DNA from: Vulcanimicrobiota bacterium
GTDB taxonomy: Bacteria; Vulcanimicrobiota; Xenobia; Xenobiales; JADMJV01
Length of the DNA stretch: 64,000 bases
Assembly: GCA_050250895.1 (NCBI GenBank)
Contig: JBFWNU010000001.1
Span: 3,012,891 to 3,076,890, forward strand
Direction of reading: 5' to 3'
Shown here: positions 26,781 to 28,387 of the stretch, in pieces
Numbering within the stretch: the stretch's first letter is position 1
Layout: the number at the start of each line of letters is the position of its first letter
Made by a program: the position numbers and the translations under genes
Notes under the pieces: model-generated
The model's database searches: none
What the model was told of the DNA's origin: nothing
Seen by the model: only the letters and a program-made list of their open reading frames with translations

Positions 26781-27173
26781 ATGAAAATTCTCAAGCTAAC
26801 CGTTCTTTTTATGCTCGCTCTTTCGACCCTGGCCCTGGCCAACGACCCGCTGCCCTTCGCCGTCAAACTCGGCGACCAGGCGGCCCAGCGCAAAGAGGGC
26901 GTCGACACCCACGCTGTCTTCGCCGGTCCGGTGGCCTCTAACGCCGTCATGTCGGTCTCGGGCGTCGAGGGTCAGATCATCGTCAACATCTTTCCCGCCC
27001 ACGAGGACGGCACCGTCGACTCGGGCGCCCAGGCCCTCATCCTGCTGTTCGACGCCAAAGCGTCCAAGGCCATCAGCCAGAACATGCAGGGCAAGGCCCC
27101 GGCTGCCGGTTGGTACCTGGCGAACGTCGTCGGAGGGGGCAATACCTCGCGCATCGTTTTCCAGGTGAAATAA
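26781..27173 (+). CDS. Secreted hypothetical protein
   Basis: Signal peptide MKILKLTVLFMLALSTLALA; beta-rich mature domain. Confidence 0.7.
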   Translation: MKILKLTVLFMLALSTLALANDPLPFAVKLGDQAAQRKEGVDTHAVFAGPVASNAVMSVSGVEGQIIVNIFPAHEDGTVDSGAQALILLFDAKASKAISQNMQGKAPAAGWYLANVVGGGNTSRIVFQVK

Positions 27174-27204
27174 AAAGAAAAAGCCCCGGCTTTCGCCGGG
27201 GCGT
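27172..27204. terminator. Intrinsic terminator-like hairpin
   Basis: GCCCCGGC-TTTC-GCCGGGGC preceded by an A-run just after the stop codon. Confidence 0.6.
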
Positions 27205-27310
27205 TAGGTCCAACCATTGCTCATCTCACTGAGGAAACTTTACCGCCCCGGCGTCACAAGAGCGTTAAATCCCTGGTAGGCTCCGGGCCGGCCTTGCCGA
27301 AGTAACCAGC

Positions 27311-27595
27311 ATGAACAGAAGAACTCTCCTTTCCTACCTGCTAATGCTACCTCTGTCTGCTCTGGCGGCTGCCAAGACCGCCCAGGTGAAGCTCAAGATC
27401 TCCGGCGTTAGTTGACCCACCGGGTGAGGCAAGCGCGTCGAAGACGCGCTGATGCGCCTGGATGGCGTAGTAAAGGCAAAACTGATTCGACGGGACCTGG
27501 CCCAGGTGTTCTATGACGCCTCGGTCACCAACCCCGAGAAGATCGTGGCGGACTTCAACAAGACGGGTGGACGCTACCAGGCGGCGCTGACCTGA
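27311..27595 (+). CDS. Exported HMA (MerP/CopZ-like) metal-binding protein with two in-frame TGA at the Cys positions; probable di-selenoprotein
   Basis: Read-through translation MNRRTLLSYLLMLPLSALAAAKTAQVKLKISGVS*PTG*GKRVEDALMRLDGVVKAKLIRRDLAQVFYDASVTNPEKIVADFNKTGGRYQAALT; TGA at 27413 and 27425. Confidence 0.8.
27432..27469 (+). promoter_or_regulatory. Two tandem SECIS-like hairpins
   Basis: AGCGCGTC-GAA-GACGCGCT (27432-27450) and TGCGCC-TGGAT-GGCGTA (27453-27469) downstream of the two TGA codons. Confidence 0.55.
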
Positions 27596-27702
27596 ACTCA
27601 ACTTGTAACCTCTGTAAGTGATCTGTAAGCGGCCTGTCATCGGCTCGTTGGCGAGCCGGGATAAGCTTGACTCACAAGCAAGCACGAAAAGAGGAAAACA
27701 AG

Positions 27703-27975
27703 ATGAAAACTTCGTTCACCACCGCTAATGGCAACACCGTCTACCTGGCCGCCGGCAAAGCCGCCGGCCCCCACCGCGCTGGCGCTGCCGCCGGTTGGGC
27801 CGTCGATGTCGGCAGTGACGGCACCCTCGACGCCGGTCGCGGCCGGGCGGTCGGCGTCGGCCCCAACGGGGCGGCCGCCGTGCACGCCGGCTTTGGCCCC
27901 AACGGGCACGGTGCCCGGGCCATCGCAACCAACGGCGAGACCACCCGCACCTGGTCGCGTTTCGTTCACTCCTAG
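27703..27975 (+). CDS. Small Gly/Ala-rich hypothetical protein
   Basis: GAGGA RBS; repeated G..AV.VGPNG beta-hairpin units. Confidence 0.6.
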   Translation: MKTSFTTANGNTVYLAAGKAAGPHRAGAAAGWAVDVGSDGTLDAGRGRAVGVGPNGAAAVHAGFGPNGHGARAIATNGETTRTWSRFVHS

Positions 27976-28018
27976 ACCCTGACGTTAGCCGCTAGAAAGA
28001 ATGCAGGAGGAAGCCAGA

Positions 28019-28387
28019 ATGTTCACCCACGCCACTTTCGTAGATTTTCTCGAGAAGGTCTTCAAGGAAACCATCGACATCGACCTGGCCATCAACTGGC
28101 TCGAAGAGGCTTACAACAGCCTCCAGTCTGAATCGGCTCAGTTGAGCGAACTGATCGAAAAATCAGGATACTTCGACGTCTCACCGGAAGAAGTCGAGTA
28201 TGGATTGACGGCGATGGGTGACTATCAGGCCGCCATCGAGGCGGTGCACAGCTTCCTCAGCGAAGGCTGGGAAGAGGGCCTGGAAGTGGCCATCGAGCGG
28301 GCCGGCGAAGCCCACCAGAAAATGCTGGTGGCCCACGACCTGGCCCAGCAAACCTCCCTCGACCTGGCTTTCGAAGCCGTTTACTAG
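28019..28387 (+). CDS. Acidic helical hypothetical protein
   Basis: AGGAGG RBS before ATG 28019; GC-typical codon usage. Confidence 0.65.
   Translation: MFTHATFVDFLEKVFKETIDIDLAINWLEEAYNSLQSESAQLSELIEKSGYFDVSPEEVEYGLTAMGDYQAAIEAVHSFLSEGWEEGLEVAIERAGEAHQKMLVAHDLAQQTSLDLAFEAVY

Follow-up and report, generated by a model that had tools for sequence, protein, structure and literature searches.

The 64,000-nucleotide stretch of the Vulcanimicrobiota bacterium genome that we analyzed (the window; contig JBFWNU010000001.1 of assembly GCA_050250895.1) carries on its plus strand a small gene that is interrupted by two in-frame TGA codons. An earlier note, made from the letters of the window alone, had read this locus as an exported HMA metallochaperone in which both metal-binding cysteine codons are replaced by TGA, and had proposed that these codons are recoded as selenocysteine (Sec, U) or cysteine. 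The frame reads as that note described it: from its ATG to its own stop, which is a TGA as well, it runs through 94 codons when TGA is translated as U, and the only interruptions are the two TGAs, which fall on the ligand positions of the HMA domain with three residues between them (Table 1). The encoded protein begins with the leader MNRRTLLSYLLMLPLSALAAA, continues as KTAQVKLKISGVS-U-PTG-U-GKRVEDAL and ends in GGRYQAALT; written out in full, it is MNRRTLLSYLLMLPLSALAAAKTAQVKLKISGVSUPTGUGKRVEDALMRLDGVVKAKLIRRDLAQVFYDASVTNPEKIVADFNKTGGRYQAALT. Since the two TGAs break the open reading frame (ORF) under translation table 11, the gene is invisible to ordinary gene calling, and the table 11 ORF list shows at this place a minus-strand ORF and a short plus-strand ORF that starts from an internal ATG.

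Table 1. Features of the candidate selenoprotein gene and of the ORFs listed at its locus (positions in the window).
Feature	Position	Strand	Basis or remark
Coding sequence of a probable exported HMA-like selenoprotein, 94 residues	27311..27595	+	Sequence and PF00403; homologue in G001 (two TGA) covers residues 1-94
Predicted signal peptide, about residues 1-19/21 (MNRR, hydrophobic core, ALA/AAA)	27311..27373	+	Read from sequence; putative cleavage site
UGA 1, codon 35, first metal-ligand position (Cys in Cys forms), probably read as Sec	27413..27415	+	TGA in 19/23 family loci
UGA 2, codon 39, second ligand position, first turn of helix 1	27425..27427	+	TGA only in G000 and G001; TGY in the other 21/23 loci
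Hairpin 1, candidate upper stem-loop of a Sec insertion sequence, AGCGCGUC / GAA / GACGCGCU	27432..27450	+	8-bp stem; z -3.41 (76 nt), z -2.65 (45 nt)
Hairpin 2, GCGCC / UGGAU / GGCGU	27454..27468	+	Loop 34 nt past the U of UGA 2
Terminal TGA, read as stop	27593..27595	+	Homology stops here; G001 homologue ends two codons later with a non-TGA stop
Listed ORF, 112 aa	27347..27685	-	Table 11 ORF list
Listed ORF, 47 aa, internal ATG at 27452	27452..	+	Table 11 ORF list

We consider it very likely that this unannotated gene is functional and UGA-recoded, with two Sec codons. When scored with U read as C, the protein matches the Pfam HMA profile PF00403 with 28.8 bits (gathering cut-off 24.8; E 1.7e-6), with residues 28-86 aligned to profile positions 2-60 of 62. 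An AlphaFold model computed from a 15-row family alignment (mean predicted local distance difference test score, pLDDT, 85.5) has the HMA-like element order beta-alpha-beta-beta-alpha-beta (strand 23-31, helix 39-48, strands 53-60 and 63-69, helix 75-84, strand 90-93) and places U35 within the loop that follows strand 1, with helix 1 starting at U39. Foldseek found 24 PDB chains at E <= 0.001, led by metal-binding domains of ATP7B and HMA7 and by MerP (1osd), with template modeling scores of 0.77-0.82 on the target for the best fold matches, so that Pfam, AlphaFold and Foldseek agree on the HMA/MerP-like fold of the earlier note. The ligand consensus of HMA domains is GMxCxxC, and the U-x-x-x-U of this protein departs from the canonical C-x-x-C spacing. 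In the model, residues 1-20 lie ahead of the first strand with low pLDDT and without secondary structure, and the homologues likewise have an N-terminal hydrophobic leader that ends in AxA-like sites.

A search of 61 related genomes with this protein, in which stops were read through, gave matches in 16 of them, mostly with one TGA. The homologue from a genome of the same genus (G001; the genome holding the window is G000) is 51% identical over residues 1-92 (E 1.9e-22) and has TGA at both ligand positions (G-M-T-U-P-S-G-U-G). We then ran a 15-member profile over a sample of 401 genomes from the phylum (four of them unpublished, giving generic HMA matches only). Matches at the family level, ~65 bits or more, came exclusively from three taxonomic families within the class to which the window belongs, and the weaker ones were HMA domains at the N-terminus of long ORFs that are presumably P-type ATPases. 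We read 23 family loci, namely those of the phylum sample and four fetched separately, and found two UxxxU motifs (G000 and G001), 11 UxxxC, six UxxC and four CxxxC. Position 1 is therefore TGA in 19 loci and Cys in four, position 2 is TGA in two and Cys in 21, and the Sec forms have a spacing of three residues in 13 loci and of two in six. A CxxxC paralogue is found in the source genome itself (C3:246137-246394). All family loci encode a hydrophobic leader and nearly all a C-terminal G-R-Y-x-A motif, which is the family's version of the "GY" element of the HMA consensus.

Selenoproteins are classically recognized by the pairing of Sec with Cys in homologues whose sequence is conserved on both sides, and in this family the in-frame UGA is aligned with Cys in homologues and both flanks are conserved. 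The earlier note had argued that two random nonsense mutations would hardly strike just these codons, and the homologues bear this out: because G001 has the same TGA pair and 17 more homologues have TGA at position 1, the TGAs at the ligand positions are not there by chance. Judged from the sequences, this distribution across relatives is the bioinformatic signature of a selenoprotein, unlike that of a pseudogene or an assembly error. In a maximum-likelihood tree, G000 (UPTGU) and G001 (UPSGU) are grouped with support 98/95, and a single-Sec form (UPSGC; G015a) is sister to the two, again with support 98/95. The terminal branches of the pair measure 0.91 and 0.27 changes per site and the frames are otherwise open, so both TGAs have outlasted a long divergence. 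This topology nests UxxxU within the UxxxC forms and suggests that this genus gained the second Sec later; the simplest reading is a stepwise history from Cys-Cys over Sec at ligand 1 to a second Sec in the ancestor of the genus.

In public protein data, a search with the single protein against 5.8 billion proteins gave one match, a 79-aa ORF called from an internal Met in a close relative. A profile search of the public protein collection (proteins of 40-165 residues, E <= 1e-10) recovered family members as Cys forms only, among 16 of 38 matches; one of these Cys forms, identical to that of genome G020, is named "hypothetical protein [Candidatus Xenobia bacterium]", a name that points to class Xenobia of Eremiobacterota for this lineage. 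Protein-pattern scans of genome and metagenome contigs and a degenerate DNA pattern run over the metagenome contigs yielded zero relatives.

The source genome (9.5 Mb, 63% G+C, 17 contigs) has the machinery for Sec incorporation, of which the earlier note had seen no sel genes within the window. Genome profile searches identified selB (383 bits, cut-off 242), selA (517 bits, cut-off 268) and selD (358 bits, with one in-frame TGA), and these three genes adjoin one another at C1:698421-702633 (L001, L009, L018). The in-frame TGA of selD means that the organism's selenophosphate synthetase is itself a selenoprotein. A transfer RNA (tRNA) for Sec at C1:1879539-1879630 scores 73 bits with the Rfam model and is called tRNA-SeC with anticodon UCA by ARAGORN, which lists 64 tRNAs genome-wide and no other UCA anticodon. 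The two tRNA-Cys measure an ordinary 72 and 74 nt, and no candidate for a tRNA-ReC-like, SelB-dependent UGA-to-Cys tRNA is found among the 64 tRNAs of ARAGORN, a program that may miss odd tRNAs. In all five other Sec-form genomes tested, selB and tRNA-Sec are over cut-off.

Downstream of UGA 1, the RNA can form a hairpin of the kind expected for a bacterial Sec insertion sequence (SECIS). The 76 nt from 27405 have a minimum free energy of -34.3 kcal/mol (0 of 200 shuffles as good) and fold into the apical hairpin 1, an internal loop and a lower stem (27415-27426 with 27455-27468). The loop of hairpin 1 starts 27 nt past the U of UGA 1 and 15 nt past that of UGA 2. As a criterion for SECIS-like hairpins we asked for a contiguous stem of at least 5 bp and a loop of 3-9 nt that starts at +18 to +30 and has a G in loop positions 1-2; the window gene has such a hairpin for UGA 1 (8-bp stem, loop GAA at +27) and is one of 16 among the 19 Sec forms that do, with 6.2 expected from dinucleotide shuffles. 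In the three Sec forms without one, the stems are interrupted. Because the hairpins have no one common register across the family, covariation was tested in the seven sequences that share an AGUU loop. There, both partners have changed in three of seven pairs, the share of paired cells is 83.7% vs 6-47% with the partner slid, and the covariation score was reached by 0 of 500 shuffles. A SECIS element for UGA 1 is well supported but short of proven. Rfam models scanned over 26900-28100 gave nothing near any gathering score. Three UxxC members (L064, L081, L082) have a strong second hairpin (CACCACC ... GGUGGUG) about 35-52 nt after the TGA, over T-T-V-x-G-V codons and 3' of the AGUU hairpin, which echoes hairpin 2 of the window.

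UGA 2 lies 12 nt downstream of UGA 1 and 5 nt upstream of the base of hairpin 1. We infer that it is decoded either via the element of hairpin 1 or via hairpin 2, whose 15 nt fall within a 22-nt stretch (27446-27467) identical in G001; the 3' arm of hairpin 2 could alternatively pair with 27415-27426 as the lower stem of hairpin 1. A bolder proposal is that each UGA has a hairpin of its own in a tandem arrangement, UGA 1 being served by hairpin 1 and UGA 2 by hairpin 2, and that the product has what would be the first U-x3-U diselenol/diselenide site of an exported HMA protein, with relatives that preserve the steps from CxxxC over UxxxC to UxxxU; in this full form we regard it as rather unlikely.

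Several observations weigh against reading this gene as a functional two-Sec gene. SECIS-like hairpins by our criterion also occur in three of five Cys forms (the four family loci and one MerP-like outgroup) vs 2.3 expected, and the stem of hairpin 1 overlaps conserved R-V-x-D codons, so the hairpin may be due in part to these codons and to high G+C. The two-Sec gene of G001 has an interrupted stem and falls outside the strict criterion. The mean folding-energy z-score over 45 nt is -0.29 in the 19 Sec forms vs -0.17 in the five Cys forms, with values below -1.64 in just three of the 19; we dropped these z-scores as a SECIS test, given that they do not separate Sec from Cys forms. From UGA 2, the base of hairpin 1 is only 5 nt away (loop at +15), closer than the gap of about 11 nt in E. 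coli fdhF. The single-Sec relatives G015a and G043 have hairpin 2 too, which is therefore not specific to UGA 2. Synonymous identity to G001 around the UGAs, at 8 of 12 codons, does not clearly exceed that of the rest of the gene, at 13 of 23. The Rfam tRNA-Sec model is over cut-off in five of 14 control genomes, including Caulobacter vibrioides, Thermus thermophilus and Thermotoga maritima, which to our knowledge do not use Sec, and the tRNA call in the source genome therefore draws on ARAGORN plus selB. Metal-related genes are absent among the neighbors of the gene and none is conserved across the family loci, and a search for sequencing runs with the locus gave five metagenome runs (shares 0.05-0.07), with no RNA run among them.

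The closest competitor of double Sec decoding grants Sec at UGA 1 and assigns to UGA 2 either Cys, through a recoding tRNA or near-cognate tRNA-Cys or tRNA-Trp, or partial decoding, so that full-length protein would be mixed with a 38-residue product. The unusual closeness of UGA 2 to hairpin 1, with the loop at +15, speaks for it, and so does a 2026 study of UXXU hydrogenases (PMC13582414), the available text of which states that, where tRNA-ReC exists, Cys may be inserted at one UGA of such a motif or at both, that tRNA-ReC is enriched in genomes with UXXU hydrogenases, and that the decoding of two close UGAs is unresolved. However, ARAGORN lists among the 64 tRNAs neither a second UCA tRNA nor a long-armed GCA tRNA, the second TGA has been kept in two species whose proteins are 51% identical, which argues for productive decoding, and the loop of hairpin 2 at +34 offers a suitable spacing for UGA 2. 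We therefore judge Cys or partial decoding at UGA 2 improbable.

More damaging readings would deny the gene altogether, and each has some support. That it is an HMA gene inactivated by two nonsense mutations would fit with the full gene having neither annotation nor protein record, the public collection holding nothing of it beyond the 79-aa ORF from a close relative, and with its lack of conserved operon partners. Against such a pseudogene, both TGAs sit exactly on ligand codons in a frame that is intact for the rest, G001 has the same pair although long branches separate the two genes, the first TGA is common to 19 of 23 family loci from three taxonomic families, and the Sec machinery is present; the earlier note would have seen a pseudogene in a genome without SelAB and tRNA-Sec whose relatives have Cys codons, and the genome and its relatives present the opposite picture. 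We accordingly hold inactivation to be very improbable. Assembly or sequencing errors in place of true TGC or TGT codons appear still less credible. Two metagenome contigs, one each in X1 and X2, cover 27187/27204-28100 with 91 differing letters and 4 gaps and must therefore come from a ~90%-identical relative, not from the source strain, so that the read-level contigs over the locus do not derive from this genome. Yet two independent substitution errors would have to strike exactly the ligand codons, while the independently assembled G001 has the same pair and 17 other assemblies have TGA at position 1. Equally slight is the chance that the minus-strand ORF of 112 aa is the real gene and the HMA reading a coincidence: it is the sole long uninterrupted table 11 ORF at the locus and is accompanied by a terminator-like hairpin with T-run on the minus strand (27202-27183), but it has no Pfam match at E up to 1, and in 21 genomes, G000 plus 20 relatives, its matches are limited to the antisense strand of the corresponding G001 locus, at E 3.8e-6 and 40% identity vs E 1.9e-22 and 51% for the sense frame. 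The terminator-like site, moreover, falls within a dispersed repeat of 99 nt that matches the genome 22 times.

The protein is a new lineage-restricted branch of an already known kind, the HMA domain with Sec ligands, which includes a two-Sec form. NCBIfam holds the model NF041115 ("UxxU_metal_bind", metal-binding (seleno)protein; "putative mercuric reductase / metal-binding protein" in reviews), whose UxxU motif with two Sec is tabulated, with credit to its reference 60, in the part of a 2026 review available to us (PMC13188914) together with a cation-transporting ATPase (UxxC), a mercuric transport protein (C/SxxU) and MbdU; in the accessible text of a 2022 review (PMC9312934), the same UxxU entry appears as "putative mercuric reductase". 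Like NF041115, the window protein has a small HMA-type domain with Sec at both ligand positions, and each of the 15 aligned family members gives a match to this model (best E 4e-19). It differs in its spacing of U-x3-U instead of U-x2-U, in its signal peptide (the model starts at the mature domain, profile positions 1-69 aligning to residues 21-91), in its C-terminal GRY, in its lineage and in a family in which the single-Sec state is the commoner one; it reaches 36.9 bits against a cut-off of 95, and no match over cut-off is found genome-wide. With MerP (TIGR02052), the periplasmic Hg(II)-binding protein of mer operons, it shares the exported single HMA domain, the GMTCxxC-type loop, the fold (1osd and 1afi are among the fold matches) and a weak sequence similarity; unlike MerP, it scores 32.9 bits against a cut-off of 92.55, its ligands are Sec with one more residue between them, and no merT, merA or merR is found near the gene, be it among the window neighbors or in the family loci. 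CopZ, the MerT-CopZ fusions and P-type ATPases have the same fold and ligand positions, whereas they are cytoplasmic or membrane-fused and the window protein is free-standing and exported. It scores 38.5 and 24.5 bits with the CopZ models NF033794 and NF033795 (cut-offs 95 and 91), and NF045683, the "MerT/CopZ fusion-like heavy metal transport selenoprotein", matches 13 of the 15 family members weakly. With scores below the cut-offs of NF041115, MerP and CopZ, the window protein is a member of none of these families.

Sec at the first ligand of an ATPase (UxxC) is already on record in the consulted part of PMC13188914, and two close UGAs followed by a SECIS-like structure are described, in the source text available, for the UXXU Group 4 [NiFeSe] hydrogenases, Prx-like UxxU, FmdB UxxU and TsoB UxxxxU proteins, which belong to other protein families. 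The strings "UxxxU", "UxxxC" and "PF00403" have 0 occurrences in the accessible text of PMC13188914, whose supplementary tables might list further families. A full-text literature search for the three-residue Sec spacing, judged by title, returned no paper on a bacterial selenoprotein with this spacing.

The neighbors of the gene in the window encode a Ser/Thr kinase with WD40 repeats, an HD-GYP-type response regulator, a helix-turn-helix protein, a histidine kinase, a type II secretion system F protein and ORFs without family match. Pfam matches on the neighbors of the other family loci point to unrelated housekeeping genes, no ATPase or MerT partner is present in the ~3-kb family loci examined, and in an all-against-all ORF comparison of the 23 loci the Sec forms share no neighbor beyond close relatives. 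All four CxxxC loci (L032, L041, L049 and L045/L061, the latter at G000:C3:244507-246394) adjoin a conserved protein of ~500-540 aa without Pfam match that is missing beside the Sec forms and has no copy near the window gene. The two-Sec homologue of G001 (C259, L030) immediately follows a gene for a molybdopterin oxidoreductase (PF00384, E 8.7e-32), a context that the window does not share. Downstream of the window gene, a Gly/Ala-rich ORF of 90 aa (27703-27972, plus strand; no Pfam match at E up to 1) and an ORF of 128 aa (28001-28384, plus strand; no Pfam match at E up to 0.001) have no counterpart beside family members in other genomes. A dispersed repeat of 97-99 nt with sharp ends (27172-27270) separates the HMA gene from the ORF upstream of it. 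Ten of its 22 matches in the source genome have 96-100% identity, metagenome contigs of three studies pile up on it to a depth of up to 313, and its minus-strand end has the terminator-like form GCCCCGGC-GAAA-GCCGGGGC followed by a T-run. It may be a multicopy small-RNA gene or an element resembling miniature inverted-repeat transposable elements or repetitive extragenic palindromes; no Rfam family comes near threshold.

Returning to the double Sec reading, we propose that the gene encodes a functional, small exported HMA protein of MerP/CopZ-like type with both ligand positions encoded by UGA, which SelA, SelB, SelD and tRNA-Sec of this genome would read as Sec; the resulting U-x-x-x-U site would lie in the loop and at the start of helix 1. 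UGA 1 would most likely be decoded via the stem-loop at 27432-27450 with its lower stem, and UGA 2 via the same element or hairpin 2. The protein would belong to a lineage-restricted exported HMA family with C-terminal GRY, in which ligand 1 is usually Sec (UxxxC or UxxC) and the second Cys-to-Sec change would have happened in the ancestor of this genus. With no metal-related or conserved neighbor, the functional assignment is drawn from fold and ligand chemistry. On these, the likeliest role appears to be that of an exported single-domain binder of soft metals with two selenolate ligands: in the periplasm, the mature protein of ~73 residues may hold a soft metal ion, Hg(II), Cu(I) or Ag(I), with its two selenolates on either side, or might alternatively cycle between diselenide and diselenol. 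The earlier note had likewise suggested a metal trap or a redox carrier, and the genomic context favors no particular metal. That metal binding is the physiological role has, in our estimate, about even chances.

For the lineage, these results would add an unannotated, lineage-restricted family of exported HMA proteins to the prokaryotic selenoproteome, with 19 Sec-bearing loci in the genomes searched, and indicate that gene callers systematically overlook such genes. The two-Sec form may serve as a compact natural system, with a mature domain of ~73 residues, for studying how the ribosome and SelB decode UGAs four codons apart, and it bears on the effect of selenolate in place of thiolate on the binding of soft metals (Hg, Cu, Ag) outside the cytoplasm. 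With its relatives it forms a natural series of CC, UC and UU ligand pairs on one small scaffold. If the tandem-hairpin proposal were true, this would be a ready series for the effect of a second selenium on periplasmic metal affinity or redox potential.

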